Shown one piece after another: positions 123 to 59,654 of a stretch of DNA of 64,000 nt. Both the position numbers and the translations under genes were made by a program. Origin of the DNA: Planctomycetaceae bacterium (lineage in GTDB: Bacteria; Planctomycetota; Phycisphaerae; Phycisphaerales; SM1A02); assembly GCA_947492385.1 (NCBI GenBank), contig CANLMX010000007.1, positions 4,877-68,876 on the forward strand, in the 5' to 3' direction. Position 1 is the first letter of the stretch, and each line of letters begins with the position of its first letter. The notes under the pieces are model-generated. The model was not told where the DNA came from and did no database searches. It saw only the letters and a program-made list of their open reading frames with translations.

Positions 123-206
123 TGCGGGCGACAGGACTTGAACCTGCACGGGGTTGCCCCCATCAGAACCTAAATCTGATGCGTCTGCCAATTCCGCCAC
201 GCCCGC
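123..206 (-). tRNA. tRNA-Leu (anticodon UAG), 84 nt, long variable arm, CCA not encoded
   Basis: The reverse complement folds as a cloverleaf. Acceptor GCGGGCG/CGCCCGC; anticodon stem UCAGA/UCUGA with loop UUUAGGU (anticodon UAG); variable arm UGGGGGCAACCCCGUG; T arm CAGG-UUCAAGU-CCUG; discriminator A. Confidence 0.85.
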
Positions 207-2130: not shown

Positions 2131-3143
2131 GCGAACCCGCCGCGGACACGGGCACCCACGCCGAGGCCGGCATCGCGCCGCGAAGCCCGGTCGTCGCCGT
2201 GCTCGCATCCACGGTGTTCCACGTGGCGATCGCGGCCGCGCTGGCAGCGATGGGCGTGACCGCCGCGCGCGCGATGCGCCGCGAGGCTCCGCCCGTGCTG
2301 GTCGCCGAATGGACGCCTCCCCCGCCGCCCGGAGTGGTGCCCGCCCCGCCCGAACTGCCCGTGCCCGGCGGCTCGCCGATGCACATGGGCCCGGCAGGGC
2401 GCGCCAAGGTGGACGCGGCCTCCGCCGCACGCGCCGCAGCTGACCGACTGGCCCGGATGGCACCCGAGCCGGCGGGGCCATCGGCGCCGGCCCCCCGCAT
2501 CGCGACGGGACTCGGCTTCGAGGACGTGCCATCGGGCAGCTTCCGGGCCGCCAGCTTCGCCACCGACCGTGCGCGCGTCGCGTTCGTGGTGGACGCGGGC
2601 GGTCGCCTGCTCGGGGCGCTGCCTGCCGCGCGCTCGGTGCTTGCGCAGCGCCTGGCCGCGCTCGACGCGCAGCAGCGGTTCGTGCTCGTGGTCGCGCGGG
2701 GCGGCGGGGTCGAGACGGCGCCGGGCACGCCGGCCCTGGCGACGCGAGGCAACGTGGCCGCCGCGCTCGCCTGGTTCACCGAGCGCGCGGCCCCGGGCGG
2801 CACCGCGGACCTCGGCGCCGCGCTCGAACGCGCGTGGGACGGGTTCAGCCCCGACGCCGTGTGCATCGTCGCGCGCGGCGTGCCTGCATCGCGCCGACCG
2901 GCAGCACGCTCGCCCTTCGCCGGGCTCGCGCCCGCGGCCGACCGACTGAATCCGCCGGGCCCAGGGGGGGCGCGCGCGGCGTCGTTCCTCTGCATCGAGC
3001 TCGCCGACGCATCGGCGGATGGGATGCTCCGCTCCGTGGGAACCGCGCACGGCGGGACTGCGGGCTACCTTCTCCTCGACCGCGCGGCGCTGGGCCTGGT
3101 GCCCGCGCGGCGCCCCGCATCGGCGACGCAACGATCACCATGA
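2127..3143 (+). CDS. membrane-anchored protein with TonB-like topology (TM anchor plus Pro-rich spacer) and a vWA-like C-terminal domain with a degenerate MIDAS
   Basis: ATG at 2127. N-terminal TM segment VVAVLASTVFHVAIAAALAAMGV, then EWTPPPPPGVVPAPPELPVPGG. The C-terminal alternating beta/alpha pattern (VAFVVDAGGRL ... FVLVVARGG ... GGTADLGAALERAW ... AVCIVARG) resembles a von Willebrand A fold lacking DxSxS. It sits directly upstream of exbB with an ATGA overlap. Confidence 0.55.
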   Translation: MSEPAADTGTHAEAGIAPRSPVVAVLASTVFHVAIAAALAAMGVTAARAMRREAPPVLVAEWTPPPPPGVVPAPPELPVPGGSPMHMGPAGRAKVDAASAARAAADRLARMAPEPAGPSAPAPRIATGLGFEDVPSGSFRAASFATDRARVAFVVDAGGRLLGALPAARSVLAQRLAALDAQQRFVLVVARGGGVETAPGTPALATRGNVAAALAWFTERAAPGGTADLGAALERAWDGFSPDAVCIVARGVPASRRPAARSPFAGLAPAADRLNPPGPGGARAASFLCIELADASADGMLRSVGTAHGGTAGYLLLDRAALGLVPARRPASATQRSP

Positions 3144-12948: not shown

Positions 12949-13641
12949 ATGCACCGGAACTCCGTCACCGCCGTCGCCGCCGCAGCGGCCGCGATCGGCG
13001 CCATCGTCGCGACGCTCGCCGGCCAGGCCGGCGCGTCCGCCCGAACCGCGCCCGCACCCACGCGCGTCGCCGTCGTCGATCTCGTGAAGGTCATCGAGCG
13101 CCTCGACGAGCGCGCCGACTGGGAGGTGCAGATCGCCGCCCTGGGCAAGAAGATCCAGGAGGAGTTCTCCGCCCGGCGCAAGGGGCTCGAGGAGATGGCA
13201 GGCACCATGGAAGCCGCGGCCGAGTCCGAACGCATGGCCATCCGCGACAAGGTCGCGTTCGAGCAGCTGCAGTTCGAGCAGTGGGAAGCCATCAAGAAGA
13301 TCGAGGTCGACCGCGAGCGCGCGCTCATGTGGCAGAGCATGTACCGCAACGTCCGGGCCGAGTGCCAGAAGCTGGCCGAGGCCGAGGGCTACGACGCGAT
13401 CCTCGTCAACGACGGCGTCGGCGAGATCCAGCTGCAGCGCGAGTCGAAGTCGCCGCTCGAGGCGCAGGCGCAGGAGCAGATCGTGCGCCGCCGCGTGCTC
13501 TTCGCGGCGAAGTCGATCGACGTGACCGACCAGCTGGTCGTGCGCATGAACAACGCGCACGGGAGCGCCGCGCGCCCCGTGGGGTCCGCGCCCGCCGCCG
13601 CACCCGCGCCGGCACCCGCGCCCGCCGCCACGCCGAAGTGA
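12949..13641 (+). CDS. OmpH/Skp-family periplasmic chaperone
   Basis: 230 aa. Signal peptide, then a coiled-coil region and the motif AEAEGYDAILVNDGV typical of OmpH. Located after bamA. Confidence 0.75.
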   Translation: MHRNSVTAVAAAAAAIGAIVATLAGQAGASARTAPAPTRVAVVDLVKVIERLDERADWEVQIAALGKKIQEEFSARRKGLEEMAGTMEAAAESERMAIRDKVAFEQLQFEQWEAIKKIEVDRERALMWQSMYRNVRAECQKLAEAEGYDAILVNDGVGEIQLQRESKSPLEAQAQEQIVRRRVLFAAKSIDVTDQLVVRMNNAHGSAARPVGSAPAAAPAPAPAPAATPK

Positions 13642-27745: not shown

Positions 27746-28468
27746 ATGCGCGAAAGCCCAGCAATCCTTGCGCAGGATGCCGTCGCCGCAGGCTCGATGA
27801 GCCTGTTCGAGTACGTCCGCGCGGGCGGGCCGCTCGGCTACCTGCTCATCGGACTCTCGGTGGTGGTGGTGGCACTCATCGTGCGCAACCTGCTTGCGCT
27901 CCGACGCGGCGTCCTGTCGCCGCCGGGGTTCACCAAGGAAGTCTCCGAGCAGCTCCGCAAGGGCGCCGTCGCCGCGGCCGCCAAGGCGTGCGCGGACGAG
28001 CCGGGGCAGTCGTTCGTGGCACGCGTCATGGCCGCCGCGATCAGGCGCTGCACGGCAAGCCCGATGGGCGCGCTCGAAGCGCGATCCGCGATCGAGGATG
28101 CGGCGCAGGTGGAGGCCATGCGTCTCCACCGGCTGAACAACGGGCTCGGCGTGCTCGCGGCGGTCGGCCCGATGCTCGGGCTGCTGGGCACCGTGATCGG
28201 CATGATCGGCGCCTTCAACGCGATCGGGTCGCTGCAGGGCGCGGCGCGGTCCACCGAGCTGGCGCGGTTCATGTCGCTCGCGCTGGTGAACACCGCGCAG
28301 GGACTCGTGGTCGCGGTGCCGGCAACGGTGGCGTTCGCGCTGTTCCGGCAGCGGATCGACCGGCTCGTGACCGACGTCGCGGTGGCCGACCTCGAGCCGC
28401 TTGCGGATGACCTTGCCGCAGGGATCGGTGCCGCCCAGCGCGCCGCAGGCGCCGCGCGGAGGGCGTGA
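27746..28468 (+). CDS. exbB: MotA/TolQ/ExbB proton-channel protein (second set)
   Basis: 240 aa (alternative ATG at 27797, MSLFEYVRAGGPLGYLLIG). Core motif LGVLAAVGPMLGLLGTVIGMIGAF...LVNTAQGLVVAVPA. Confidence 0.85.
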   Translation: MRESPAILAQDAVAAGSMSLFEYVRAGGPLGYLLIGLSVVVVALIVRNLLALRRGVLSPPGFTKEVSEQLRKGAVAAAAKACADEPGQSFVARVMAAAIRRCTASPMGALEARSAIEDAAQVEAMRLHRLNNGLGVLAAVGPMLGLLGTVIGMIGAFNAIGSLQGAARSTELARFMSLALVNTAQGLVVAVPATVAFALFRQRIDRLVTDVAVADLEPLADDLAAGIGAAQRAAGAARRA

Positions 28469-28887
28469 TGGCAGGGGCACCGGATGCATCCGAGGCGTCG
28501 TTCGACCTGACGCCGATGATCGACGTCATCCTGCTCCTCATCATCTTCTTCATGCTGAGCTCGCAGTTCGCCAACTCCGAGCTGCGGCCGATCGACCTGC
28601 CCGCCGAGCGCGGCGCGCGGCCGCCGAGCGAGTCCGCTGCGGCACGGTTGGTGGTCGACATGGACCGCATGGGCGCATTCACGGTGATGGGCGAGCCCGT
28701 CGAGGCGGAAGCGCTTGCGGAACGGGTGGCCGCCGTACAGCGGGGGAGCGGGCCGCGCCACAGCGGCGTGGTGGTCCGCGCGGACCGTGCCGCGCCGGCG
28801 GCCGCACTCAACCGCCTGGCCACACGTCTGGCCGAGGCCGGGGTTGCCAACTGGTCGATCGCCGTCGCGTCGGAGGGCGACCCGTGA
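28465..28887 (+). CDS. exbD: ExbD/TolR biopolymer transport protein
   Basis: 140 aa. FDLTPMIDVILLLIIFFMLS. GTGA overlap with the exbB stop. Confidence 0.85.
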   Translation: MMAGAPDASEASFDLTPMIDVILLLIIFFMLSSQFANSELRPIDLPAERGARPPSESAAARLVVDMDRMGAFTVMGEPVEAEALAERVAAVQRGSGPRHSGVVVRADRAAPAAALNRLATRLAEAGVANWSIAVASEGDP

Positions 28888-31808: not shown

Positions 31809-32705
31809 TCAGCCCGGGCGCCCGGCGGACGGCCCGGTCCCGGGCTCGCCGGGCGGCGGCGCCAGGTCGTGTCCGCCGTCCTCGTGGAGCGCCCCCATCT
31901 GCGCGCGGTACGGCAGGATGTGCGGGTCGTCGCTTGCCGCGAAGGCGTCGAACGACCCGTCGAACAGCACACGACCCGCATGCAACATCACCACGCGCGG
32001 CCGGAGCCGGCGCAGCAGCTCGGTGTCGTGCGTGACGATCACGCTCGTCCGTGCCGCACCCTCGCGGCCGGCCGCGAACGCGGGCTGCGCACGATGGGTC
32101 GCGCCGATGAGCGCGTGGATTTGCGCGGACATCTCGGGATCGAGCCCCGCGGTCGGCTCGTCGTACATCACGATCACCGGATCCATGACGATCGCGCGCG
32201 CGATCGCGACGCGCTTGGCCATGCCGCCGGAGAGCTCCTCGCGGTCCCGGTGCATCACGGCATCCGGGTCGAGTCCGACGTCCGACAGCGCCTTCCGCGC
32301 AAGCGGCATGATGGCCTCGTCGGACATTCCCTTGACCTCCCGCGGAAGCACCGCGAGGTTGTGGAACACGTCGCCCGTGACCAGGGCATTGCGCTGGAAG
32401 ACCACCGCCCAGTGGGTCCGGATCCGGTCGAGGCCCGCCTCGTCGAGGGTGGCCATGTCGACCAGGGGCGCGGCCCCGCCCGGCCCTGTCGGGGATTCAT
32501 GGTCAGCCACCCGCACCCGCCCCGAATCCGGCGGGTAATGGGCCATGACCAGCTTCAGCAGGACCGTCTTGCCGCACCCCGACCCGCCCACGATCGCCAC
32601 CATCTCCCCGTTCTCGACGGTGACGTCGACCCCTTGAAGCACGGGCTTGCCGCCGAACGACTTATGGAGCCCTTCGACGACGATTTCGGGGCGGACGGAG
32701 GCCAT
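31809..32705 (-). CDS. ABC transporter ATP-binding protein (MlaF/Ttg2A-like), no permease gene adjacent
   Basis: 298 aa. Walker A GGSGCGKT, signature LSGGMAKRVAIARA, Walker B VIVMYDEPTAGLD. Confidence 0.8.
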   Translation of the reverse strand: MASVRPEIVVEGLHKSFGGKPVLQGVDVTVENGEMVAIVGGSGCGKTVLLKLVMAHYPPDSGRVRVADHESPTGPGGAAPLVDMATLDEAGLDRIRTHWAVVFQRNALVTGDVFHNLAVLPREVKGMSDEAIMPLARKALSDVGLDPDAVMHRDREELSGGMAKRVAIARAIVMDPVIVMYDEPTAGLDPEMSAQIHALIGATHRAQPAFAAGREGAARTSVIVTHDTELLRRLRPRVVMLHAGRVLFDGSFDAFAASDDPHILPYRAQMGALHEDGGHDLAPPPGEPGTGPSAGRPG

Positions 32706-32894
32706 CGGCGGAGGGTACCCCCTGCTTGAGGCGGGAACGCGCCGGCCCCGCCGAAGGCGTGGACTGGACGGAATCGGGCGTCAGGCCCCCCTGGAGGCCC
32801 AGGAAGCCCCGAATGGACCCATCAGGAAGAAATCTCGTTCGGCCGTGATGGCCGGGGAGTTTCGATTGCGTTCAGTAGGTCGTCGGGGGCACTT

Positions 32895-33086
32895 CTGGAT
32901 GGCGGACGGGAACCCGCCGACAGAACTGAAGGCCACTCAGTCGACGGGAAACCGACTGACGGCCGACAACGCGACGCGCTCCTGAACGGGAGACTCAGGG
33001 ATGCGTCAAACGCCGACGGCTCGACGGGAAACCGAGCCTGAAGCAAAGGAGTGTGGCCCTGAGAGATCGGGGCCTACACCTTTTTT
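32895..33086 (+). ncRNA. candidate small RNA: three hairpins displaying an ACGGGAA(A)C loop plus an intrinsic terminator (5' end undefined, may start further upstream)
   Basis: Hairpins GGCGG-ACGGGAAC-CCGCC (32901-32918), CAGTCG-ACGGGAAAC-CGACTG (32938-32958) and GGCTCG-ACGGGAAAC-CGAGCC (33018-33038). The terminator is at 33051-33086. The region is lower in GC, has no credible ORF, and there is no + strand gene upstream that the terminator could serve. Confidence 0.45.
33051..33086 (+). terminator. rho-independent terminator (possibly bidirectional, also downstream of icd)
   Basis: GTGTGGCCC (33051-33059) pairs with GGGCC-t-ACAC (33070-33079) around the loop TGAGAGATCG, followed by C and T6 (33081-33086). 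On the minus strand the A6 precedes the stem and UCCUUUGCUU follows it. Confidence 0.65.
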
Positions 33087-33137
33087 GGGGAACCCATCGA
33101 TGCGCCGCGGAACGACGGGGAGGCCGCCGTGCCGCCG

Positions 33138-35863
<2,726 letters not shown>

Positions 35864-58423: not shown

Positions 58424-59110
58424 ATGCCGATCACTGCCACGCCGATGGTCAAGTCCGACGTCCGCATCCGGGCCGACGTCATCTCGGAGATCGAGTGGGA
58501 TCCGTACATCCGCGACATCCCGGTGAAGGTGTCGGCCGAGTCCGGCGTCGTCACCGTGACCGGCCAGGCGCCGTCGCTTGCCTCGCGCATCAGCCTGGTC
58601 GATGCCGTCCACCGCGTGCAGGGCGTGCTCGACGTCGTCGACGAGATGACGGTCGCGCCCACCGCACAGACGATGCGCAGCGACGCGGACATCGCGCGTG
58701 CCGTGCGCGACAGCCTGCAGTGGGACTCCTACCTGCCGGACGACCGCATCGCGTGCACCGTGTCCGGGGGCATCGTGACGCTCCGGGGCACCGTGGACAC
58801 CTGGGCCCACCGGGGCGACGCCGAGCGCGCTGTCGCTCGCATCGCCGGCGTCCGGCAGGTGGTGAACCGCATGACCGTCGAGACGCGGCCCATCGACCCG
58901 TCCGCGATCCGACTGCAGATCGAGCGCGCACTCGAGCGGCGGGCCGAGCGCGAGGCACGGAAGATCACCGTGGCCGTCAAGGATGGCGTGGTGACGCTCA
59001 GCGGCACCGTCCAGAGCTGGGCCGACCGAAACGCCGTCGAGCGCGTCGCAGGCTCCGCCGCGGGCGTCACGGGCATCGACGACCGCCTGGTGGTCGATCC
59101 GTACTCCTGA
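58424..59110 (+). CDS. BON-domain protein (three BON repeats, OsmY-like)
   Basis: 228 aa. Three repeats of the pattern D..I...V...L.WD.......I.V.V..G.VTL.G.V (for example VKVSAESGVVTVTGQAPS, ACTVSGGIVTLRGTVDT, TVAVKDGVVTLSGTVQS). Confidence 0.8.
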   Translation: MPITATPMVKSDVRIRADVISEIEWDPYIRDIPVKVSAESGVVTVTGQAPSLASRISLVDAVHRVQGVLDVVDEMTVAPTAQTMRSDADIARAVRDSLQWDSYLPDDRIACTVSGGIVTLRGTVDTWAHRGDAERAVARIAGVRQVVNRMTVETRPIDPSAIRLQIERALERRAEREARKITVAVKDGVVTLSGTVQSWADRNAVERVAGSAAGVTGIDDRLVVDPYS

Positions 59111-59168
59111 ACCACGGATCGAAACCGCACCGGAAGCAACGCACCGAACCCCCGACGAAAGGAACGCC

Positions 59169-59654
59169 ATGACACTCACGATCTCGCGCCGCACGGCGCC
59201 CACCGATTCGCAGCTCAGCCGTTTCCGCGAGGAGATGGAACGGACCATCGAGACCATGCTCACCGAACCAATCATCGAGCCAAAGCTGTTCCGCATCGAG
59301 GGCTGGGCGCCGCTGGTTGATGTCAGCGAGTCCGACGCCGAGTTCATCGTGCGAGCCGAGATGCCGGGCCTTGCCGAAGCCGAGATCGAGCTCTCGATGG
59401 TCGGGAACGCCCTGCTCATCGCGGGCGAGAAACGCGCCGAGGAGGAAACGTCGGGCGAGGACTGGTACCGGTGCGAGCGCCGGTTCGGCTCGTTCCGGCG
59501 CATCGTCGACCTTCCGCAGACGGTCGACCCGGACCGCGCGTCCGCCGAGATGAGCGACGGGATGCTGACCGTCCGGGTGCCCAAGCGGCCGGAGATCCGA
59601 CCCAGGAACATCCCGATCTCGCCGGCCGGCAATGCCGGACCGTCGAAGCGCTGA
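59169..59654 (+). CDS. Hsp20/alpha-crystallin small heat-shock protein
   Basis: 161 aa. WAPLVDVSESDAEFIVRAEMPGLAEAEIELSMVGNALLIAGEKR...ERRFGSFRRIVDLPQTVDPDRASAEMSDGMLTVRVPK. Confidence 0.9.
   Translation: MTLTISRRTAPTDSQLSRFREEMERTIETMLTEPIIEPKLFRIEGWAPLVDVSESDAEFIVRAEMPGLAEAEIELSMVGNALLIAGEKRAEEETSGEDWYRCERRFGSFRRIVDLPQTVDPDRASAEMSDGMLTVRVPKRPEIRPRNIPISPAGNAGPSKR

Follow-up and report, generated by a model that had tools for sequence, protein, structure and literature searches.

CsrB and CsrC, together with RsmX, RsmY and RsmZ, are small RNAs (sRNAs) of the Gammaproteobacteria that sequester the proteins CsrA and RsmA. Each is encoded by an independent gene with an intrinsic terminator and folds into several stem-loops, each exposing a GGA loop on a stem that is free to vary. 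CsrA recognizes the consensus A(N)GGA or CAGGA(U/A/C)G, and sites about 40 nt apart lie within the range that a CsrA dimer can bridge. Repeated loops of another kind are found in sX13 (Xanthomonas), RsaE (Staphylococcus) and the alphaproteobacterial CcsR or 'cuckoo' RNAs, in which several hairpins carry one short C/U-rich motif (CCCC, UCCC, CCUCCUCCC) that pairs with G-rich Shine–Dalgarno regions; tandem gene copies also occur in such multi-seed families, for instance CcsR. The E. coli envelope-stress sRNAs MicA, RybB and MicL, which depend on extracytoplasmic function (ECF) sigma factors, are short, single-seed and Hfq-dependent and have no repeated hairpins. For the entire Planctomycetes–Verrucomicrobia–Chlamydiae (PVC) group, only eight distinct sRNAs were counted in one review (PMC9029176). 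Here, we describe a locus in a 64,000-nt stretch of a Planctomycetaceae genome (contig CANLMX010000007.1; the whole stretch is called the window below) that is very probably a structured sRNA gene on the plus strand, lying between a gene for an ATP-binding cassette (ABC) ATPase and the isocitrate dehydrogenase gene icd. The family to which it belongs is new: it is absent from Rfam 15, and no description of it was found in the literature searched.

The architecture of the RNA is like that of CsrB and RsmZ, but the RNA does not belong to their families. It shares with them the independent gene with an intrinsic terminator, the several GGA-exposing stem-loops on freely varying stems, the possibility of tandem or multiple gene copies and a site spacing compatible with dimeric bridging. 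Nevertheless, there are clear differences. The first is the lack of any sequence or covariance-model similarity. The second is the phylum, in which CsrA is thought to be antagonized by FliW. Furthermore, the loop is a near-invariant CGGGAA(AC) here but a degenerate A(N)GGA or CAGGAUG there; only four to six sites are present, placed on long extended stems at a regular 40-nt period; and TGATGG-N17-CGTT is found upstream instead of a GacA/UvrY-type box. Like sX13, RsaE and CcsR, the RNA carries one short loop motif in several hairpins together with a terminator, and like CcsR its gene occurs in tandem copies. Its loops, however, are G/A-rich, no conserved complementary target was found in the 64 kb searched, and there is no Rfam match to those families. 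The ECF-dependent sRNAs offer a lead only: the upstream motif is strictly spaced with CGT(T) at −10 and the neighbouring gene encodes an ATPase that resembles MlaF of an envelope-lipid transporter, whereas the −35 half, TGATGG, lacks the usual AAC and the repeated hairpins have no counterpart in MicA, RybB or MicL.

The predicted RNA and its parts are as follows.

32879-33086, plus strand: predicted sRNA transcript of ~200 nt; 5' end uncertain by ~10 nt, 3' end at the T6 tract
32893-32925, plus strand: hairpin 1; lower stem UUCUG/CAGAA, apical stem GGCGG/CCGCC (32901-32905/32914-32918), loop ACGGGAAC (32906-32913)
32931-32964, plus strand: hairpin 2; lower stem GGCC/GGCC, apical stem UCAGUCG/CGACUGA (32937-32943/32953-32959), loop ACGGGAAAC (32944-32952)
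32973-33007, plus strand: hairpin 3; lower stem GACGCG/UGCGUC (32973-32978/33002-33007), apical stem (U)CCUGA/UCAGG(G) (32980-32985/32995-33000), loop ACGGGAGAC (32986-32994)
33018-33038, plus strand: hairpin 4; stem GGCUCG/CGAGCC, loop ACGGGAAAC (33024-33032)
33047-33086, plus strand: intrinsic terminator; stem GGAGUG-U-GGCCCUGA / UCGGGGCC-UACACC, loop GAGA, T6 at 33081-33086

The four loops start at regular intervals (32906, 32944, 32986 and 33024), and under each lies an extended stem with an internal loop. When 32879-33088 is folded, its z-score against shuffled sequences is −5.3 and its minimum-energy structure leaves all four loops exposed. The motif ACGGGAAMC occurs four times in the window against 0.68 occurrences expected, three of the four copies being at the sRNA locus, and TCGACGGGAAACCGA is an exact 15-nt repeat whose copies are 80 nt apart. 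The three hairpins named in a preliminary description of this DNA were recovered where it had placed them (32901-32918, 32938-32958 and 33018-33038); the second of these, CAGTCG-ACGGGAAAC-CGACTG at 32938-32958, lengthens to 7 bp at 32937-32959. A fourth motif, which had been drawn as CTCC-TGAACG-GGAG (32979-32992), has to be redrawn, as the homologues give CCTGA-ACGGGAGAC-TCAGG (32981-32999) on a lower stem instead; its loop is the sole variant among the window hairpins. The same description had counted 13 GGA trinucleotides in 32791-33050 as part of the RNA. The count is right, but five of them lie 5' of the probable start, in promoter DNA.

An intrinsic terminator on the plus strand had also been proposed, and the hairpin at ~33047-33080 followed by T6 at 33081-33086 bears this out; it is kept in all members of the family, as GGAGUGUGGCCnnGAGnnAUCnnGGCCUACUCC followed each time by T5-6. 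A simple terminator scanner did not report the window terminator because its stem contains a bulge and a mismatch. The accompanying claim that nothing else could use this terminator does not hold, since it is convergent with icd and could also assist in ending the icd transcript.

Homologues of the locus were sought in two ways. In the first search, metagenome contigs were scanned for two loops at flexible spacing, which gave at least 120 matches. Most of these were arrays of clustered regularly interspaced short palindromic repeats (CRISPR), coding repeats or stemless tandem repeats; the true homologues among the matches listed were L142, L149 and L157. The CRISPR-like arrays, among them L194 (75 repeats), L155 and L200, have no flanking stems and are unrelated to the sRNA, and they matched the pattern because their repeats end in ...AGACGGGAAAC. 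In the second search, the neighbourhoods of ABC ATPase homologues were read for the element. It was present beside every homologue that was at least 73% identical (L203/204, L205-207, L208-210, L211, L212, L213-215 and L236) and absent beside those that were 68-72% identical (L216-222 and L237). The genes that flank the locus in the window are listed here.

31809-32705, minus strand: lone ABC ATPase gene, MlaF-like by a generic ABC_tran/MlaF-like family call; divergent from the sRNA, its constant neighbour, outside the RNA
33138-35399, minus strand: monomeric isocitrate dehydrogenase gene icd (TIGR00178)

Altogether, homologues occupy at least ten further distinct loci with 62-91% identity to the window, making at least 11 loci in all, and at least seven lineages are represented among the members. 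In every locus with a known flank the divergent ABC ATPase gene lies beside the sRNA, whereas the 3' neighbour differs, being icd, an epimerase gene or an acetyltransferase gene. Conservation of the hairpins in relatives, on which the preliminary description had made its proposal depend, is thus found, anchored on the ABC ATPase gene and not on icd. The use of icd itself as a synteny anchor was rejected: regions 3' of icd were taken from 80 genomes, and those of the nearest relatives contain other genes but none of the hairpins, which shows that icd is not a conserved partner. In two loci the sRNA gene is repeated, with an upstream motif and a terminator for each copy. The 1.1-kb contig L157 (1-1105) holds three tandem copies with a period of ~450 nt, and L212 (1730-2462) holds two with 90% identity to each other; a 155-aa gene call, probably spurious, overlaps one of the two. 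No true member was found in a scan of a viral contig collection. Contigs near-identical to the window come from one ENA assembly and one Joint Genome Institute (JGI) metagenome. The isocitrate dehydrogenase protein of the window is nearest to those of Phycisphaerae/Phycisphaerales metagenome-assembled genomes (MAGs; 76-83% identity), and we take the carriers to form a Phycisphaerae-like clade within the Planctomycetota, represented here by metagenomic sequences, with its closest contigs of freshwater origin going by contig naming.

Across the family, each RNA contains four to six units (four in the window) with a period of ~40 nt. The apical loops of the 53 family hairpins are ACGGGAAAC (n=31), ACGGGAAC (n=14), CGGGAA (n=4) and CGGGAAA (n=2), plus the singletons ACGGGAGAC (that of the window), AAGGGAAC, ACCGGAAAC and ACGGGGAC, all of which retain GGA; the consensus is (A)CGGGAA(A)(C). 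The apical stems that carry these loops are 4-7 bp long and comprise 38 distinct sequences with 303 Watson–Crick pairs, almost to the exclusion of other pairs. The lower stem of hairpin 1 recurs in homologues as GUUCUG/CAGAAC or UCUG/CGGA and that of hairpin 2 covaries (GGCC/GGCC, GCUUG/CAAGC, GCUC/GAGC), as do the apical pairs of hairpin 2 (alignment columns 151-155/165-169).

Covariation was quantified in the 3' half, that is, the last two loop hairpins and the terminator, with a covariance model built from five members, to which 14 instances (13 distinct sequences) were aligned; such a model-fitted alignment favours the structure somewhat. Pairing is kept in 94.6% of cells and compensatory change is seen in 11 of the 28 pairs. 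The covariation score is 0.317 against 0.161 for shuffles, with 0/500 of these reaching 0.317, and when the partners are slid by 1-3 columns it is at most 0.096. The same compensatory pairs appear in a MAFFT/RNAalifold alignment. In helix 1 (hairpin 3), five of the six pairs show compensatory changes; in helix 2 (hairpin 4), the inner four pairs are invariant and the outer ones vary among G-C, A-U and G-U; helix 3 (the terminator) is 97.4% paired, with four compensatory pairs and one invariant G-U. The proposal of conserved loops on covarying stems is thereby upheld, with 38 stem sequences under one loop and no shuffle reaching the score.

Two observations assign the RNA to the plus strand. 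A tract of T5-6 follows the terminator hairpin on this strand in every member, also where the downstream gene is not icd, and the 3' half contains 33 G-U against 7 A-C cells, so that its pairing falls from 94.6% on the plus strand to 87.1% on the minus strand. The apical stems are uninformative as to strand (4 G-U versus 6 A-C).

Upstream of the hairpins, the following elements are conserved.

32825-32837, plus strand: A/T-rich block GGAAGAAATCTCG, 5' of the promoter-like motif and at the same offset in all homologues
32846-32851, plus strand: TGATGG, candidate −35 element, invariant in all members
32869-32872, plus strand: CGTT, candidate −10 element, invariant in all members and resembling the CGT of ECF-sigma promoters

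In every member, the spacing between TGATGG and CGTT is exactly 17 nt of variable sequence, and the bipartite motif occurs once in the window against 0.23 occurrences expected. RNAalifold on the family alignment supports no helix between TGATGG and hairpin 1, and a structured 5' domain was dropped for that reason. As the halves are invariant, the 17-nt spacer is free and no helix is found, the pattern is read as a bipartite promoter signature and not as RNA structure; TGATGG-N17-CGTT is probably the sRNA promoter. Given this motif and a hairpin 1 whose conserved lower stem starts at 32893, the RNA probably begins near 32879-32890 rather than at 32791, the left edge of the earlier candidate. 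ECF-sigma promoters typically have CGT at −10 and usually AAC at −35; the ECF assignment is weak because the TGATGG half has no such AAC. No sigma factor was found among ten window proteins scanned, mostly small ones. The A/T-rich block, which in homologues often lies within a short inverted repeat of the GGAA..TTCC type, may be an UP-element or an operator.

Some further features of this region are recorded here. An inverted copy of TGATGG flanks the A/T-rich block as CCATCA in the window (32818-32823) and as GCCCATC in L209, and is missing from most other members; either chance or an operator particular to these lineages may account for it. In L216, a Phycisphaerales MAG without the sRNA, GTGATGG-N16-CGTT with a similar extended −10 adjoins the ABC ATPase start (2473-2498, minus strand) and points into the 3' end of a convergent 413-aa open reading frame (ORF). 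The copy in L216-L218 is either the remnant of an sRNA gene that was lost or an element linked to the ABC gene. A small ORF starting from the ATG of RTGATGG was rejected, as it spans 9-84 codons and its frame is not kept relative to the hairpins; the segment is non-coding.

Rfam 15 was searched for known families with the window at gathering thresholds, with 32650-33200 at E<=10 and with six homologous loci at E<=1. No match to the sRNA locus was obtained at gathering thresholds, and the permissive searches returned no Csr/Rsm or other relevant family. The best alignment, to RF02231 (sX12), covers 33000-33084, in essence the U-tailed terminator hairpin plus the stem before it, at 26.6 bits against a gathering threshold of 106 (E = 0.013 on a 551-nt query) and is a generic terminator resemblance, not membership; the remaining permissive matches were mir-940 (E = 7.1) and one spurious long non-coding RNA. 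In the literature searched, no earlier description was found of the loop sequence or of such a structured planctomycete RNA. A ToxI-like antitoxin does not fit, as the units share only the loop and the downstream gene is icd, an epimerase gene or an acetyltransferase gene, not a toxin. Nor does a guanidine-II (mini-ykkC) element, whose two hairpins bear ACGR tetraloops and precede a regulated gene: the present loops open with ACGG yet span 6-9 nt, Rfam gives no match, and the RNA has its own terminator and no co-directional downstream gene in the window. The preliminary description had named a confident Rfam hit and dispersal of the 15-nt repeat over the genome as outcomes that would contradict it. 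The Rfam searches gave no confident match for the locus or its six homologues, and no further (A)CGGGAA(A)C hairpin exists elsewhere in the window; with one hairpin locus in 64 kb and one syntenic locus in relatives, nothing suggests a repeat of the repetitive extragenic palindromic (REP) type. Taken with the family, the covariation and the terminators, these results strongly support its central proposal of an independently transcribed, intrinsically terminated plus-strand RNA.

For the function of this RNA, the reading that we favour, with a probability of roughly 45%, is that of a multivalent protein decoy. The gene would give rise to a trans-acting RNA of ~200-260 nt, transcribed from the TGATGG-N17-CGTT promoter to the conserved intrinsic terminator. 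Nearly the whole of it would fold as four to six extended stem-loops ~40 nt apart with the shared loop (A)CGGGAA(A)(C), the divergence of the stems between units preventing mispairing of the repeats. It would then sequester several copies of a protein that recognizes a GGA-containing hairpin loop, a CsrA homologue being the likeliest partner, and induction of the sRNA promoter would release the mRNA targets of that protein. That the RNA acts in trans, that it binds a protein and which protein it binds are steps that we infer, and CsrA specifically seems doubtful as the decoyed protein.

The decoy fits best for several reasons. GGA alone survives every loop variant, and GGA in a hairpin loop is the recognition element of CsrA. 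The stems of the units diverge, as expected if only the display of the loop matters, and the loops are purine-rich and Shine–Dalgarno-like rather than anti-Shine–Dalgarno. Furthermore, the gene is tandemly amplified in some lineages, and according to the literature CsrA is widespread across the Planctomycetota (PMC13443453, PMC4682653). Each member has 9-14 GGA trinucleotides on the plus strand, compared with 1-5 on the minus strand.

Several points weigh against this interpretation. CsrA of Planctomycetes is expected to be under the control of the FliW protein and not of an sRNA (PMC4682653), and no csrA was found in the 64-kb window by tblastn with the E. coli and B. subtilis proteins. The base two positions before GGA is C, not the canonical A, in 52 of the 53 hairpins, in agreement with the earlier remark that the loop is not a canonical CsrA site. 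The CGGGAA loop also varies far less than the GGA sites of CsrB and RsmZ, which are degenerate, and this uniform core suggests a different or more specific partner. Beyond the loops the excess of GGA is modest, with 10 observed against an estimated ~7 expected by composition. As for induction, the −35 candidate is without the AAC typical of ECF promoters, and the motif, there with a 16-nt spacer, also occurs beside the ABC gene in L216-L218, which carry no sRNA; we infer the promoter and the transcription start from sequence. Matches of CsrA by tblastn in L199 and L116 were set aside as coincidence, as they lie at unrelated loci where the pattern falls inside coding repeats. It is a tentative proposal, held with less confidence than the decoy mechanism as such, that this may be the first CsrB/RsmZ-like sequestering sRNA family outside the Proteobacteria, acting as a decoy for a diverged CsrA or an unknown CGGGAA-loop-specific protein and induced by an ECF-type sigma factor.

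The main rival, which we think unlikely, is a multi-seed base-pairing sRNA whose CGGGAA(AC) loops would serve as identical seeds for (GU)UUCCCG motifs in one or more mRNAs. A loop of 6-9 nt on freely varying stems does resemble a conserved seed, trans-acting sRNAs typically end in a hairpin terminator with a U-tail, and the tandem gene copies would fit this explanation as well. GUUCCCG is present 32 nt 5' of the ABC ATPase start codon in the window, but the complementary motif near this gene is not kept in homologues such as L149, and TTCCCG near start codons in the 64-kb window (~5 of 67 against ~3 expected) shows no enrichment. Moreover, known repeated-seed sRNAs have C/U-rich anti-Shine–Dalgarno loops while the present ones are Shine–Dalgarno-like, the loop variants preserve GGA and not the entire seed, and the genes of the clade are apparently mostly leaderless, which leaves scant 5' untranslated region as a target.

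Rather less likely is a multivalent display of hairpins for another purpose, for example as a platform on which a ribonucleoprotein is scaffolded or assembled, or in a precursor from which one-hairpin units of ~40 nt are cut. The regular ~40-nt period, the folding of the RNA almost wholly into extended stem-loops with internal loops, and a unit number that ranges from four to six by lineage, as in a modular array, would all suit it. However, the locus has no linked gene for a processing enzyme or a partner, the ABC ATPase gene being the only constant neighbour. The stems of the units also differ, unlike those of processed repeat arrays such as ToxI and CRISPR, and no toxin or cas gene lies downstream.

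A function on the minus strand is very improbable. In this case the hairpins, with loops GUUUCCCGU, would be a long 5' mRNA leader or cis-regulatory element of the ABC ATPase gene, and the T-run hairpin would be merely the icd terminator. The position and orientation relative to the ABC ATPase gene are indeed fixed in every locus with a known flank, the near-pure Watson–Crick stems fit either strand, and the loop-closing A...C would be G-U on the minus strand (it is G-C in L213). The fold z-scores of 32791-33090 are also alike (−3.50 on the minus strand versus −3.51). However, the plus-strand T5-6 tail is kept where the downstream gene is not icd (L142, L205, L212, L213 and L236), most members have no U-tract after a hairpin on the minus strand, and the 33 G-U cells would become A-C mismatches there. 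A −10-like TAnnnT hexamer 6-10 nt from the ABC ATG suggests a leaderless transcript that would exclude the array. This probable lack of a leader, the orientation of the terminator and the tandem copies, each of which is self-contained with its own upstream motif and terminator, make a minus-strand leader unlikely.

An element that acts at the DNA level without RNA function (iterons, operators or palindromes of the REP type or like miniature inverted-repeat transposable elements) is hardly credible, for although four regularly spaced copies of a conserved 9-mer lie between two genes, in a region between divergent promoters, it is the spacer and not the arms that is conserved, the arms covary to keep pairing and so point to selection for a single-stranded fold, the window holds no other copy, one syntenic locus persists across lineages that are 62-75% identical, and a conserved terminator always follows.

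The 432-nt gap between the ABC ATPase gene and icd has a G+C content of 0.62-0.63 compared with 0.70-0.78 in the flanks and contains no conserved ORF, as the preliminary description had noted in speaking of lower-GC DNA without a credible reading frame. On the minus strand, the hexamer TACCCT (32712-32717) lies 6 nt 5' of the ABC ATPase ATG, a placement which suggests that this mRNA is leaderless. Hexamers of the form TAnnnT (TACCCT, TAGCCT, TAGGCT, TATCCT) end 6-10 nt before many start codons of the clade, where no Shine–Dalgarno sequence is seen; such starts were noted in the window (minus strand), L081, L205, L211, L212 and L236, and their positions suggest a −10 box placed for leaderless mRNAs. 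An extra CGGGAAC on the plus strand lies within 32732-32758, at a distance of 27-33 nt upstream from the start of the ABC ATPase gene, which is on the opposite strand. Aligned over 27 nt with the 3' half and linker of hairpin 1, this segment is 74% similar; it forms no hairpin, is not conserved in L149 and is either a degenerate unit remnant or a chance similarity. Elsewhere in the window, a transfer RNA gene at 123-206 (minus strand) is the sole match at Rfam gathering thresholds, envelope and stress genes at 58424-59654 and 12949-13641 encode a BON-domain protein, Hsp20 and an OmpH/Skp-like chaperone, and ExbB/ExbD genes are found at 27746-28887.

The locus represents a well-supported new planctomycete sRNA family of unusually clear anatomy, in a group for which few such sRNAs are known. 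If the RNA is a CsrA decoy, RNA-based antagonism of CsrA would not be limited to the Proteobacteria, and it could coexist with or replace the FliW mechanism that is assumed for other phyla. If the partner is another protein, the near-invariant CGGGAA loop would be a direct handle for identifying a new RNA-binding protein. In either case the family offers a defined motif, strand and boundaries as well as a dozen natural variants, which makes the hypothesis testable.

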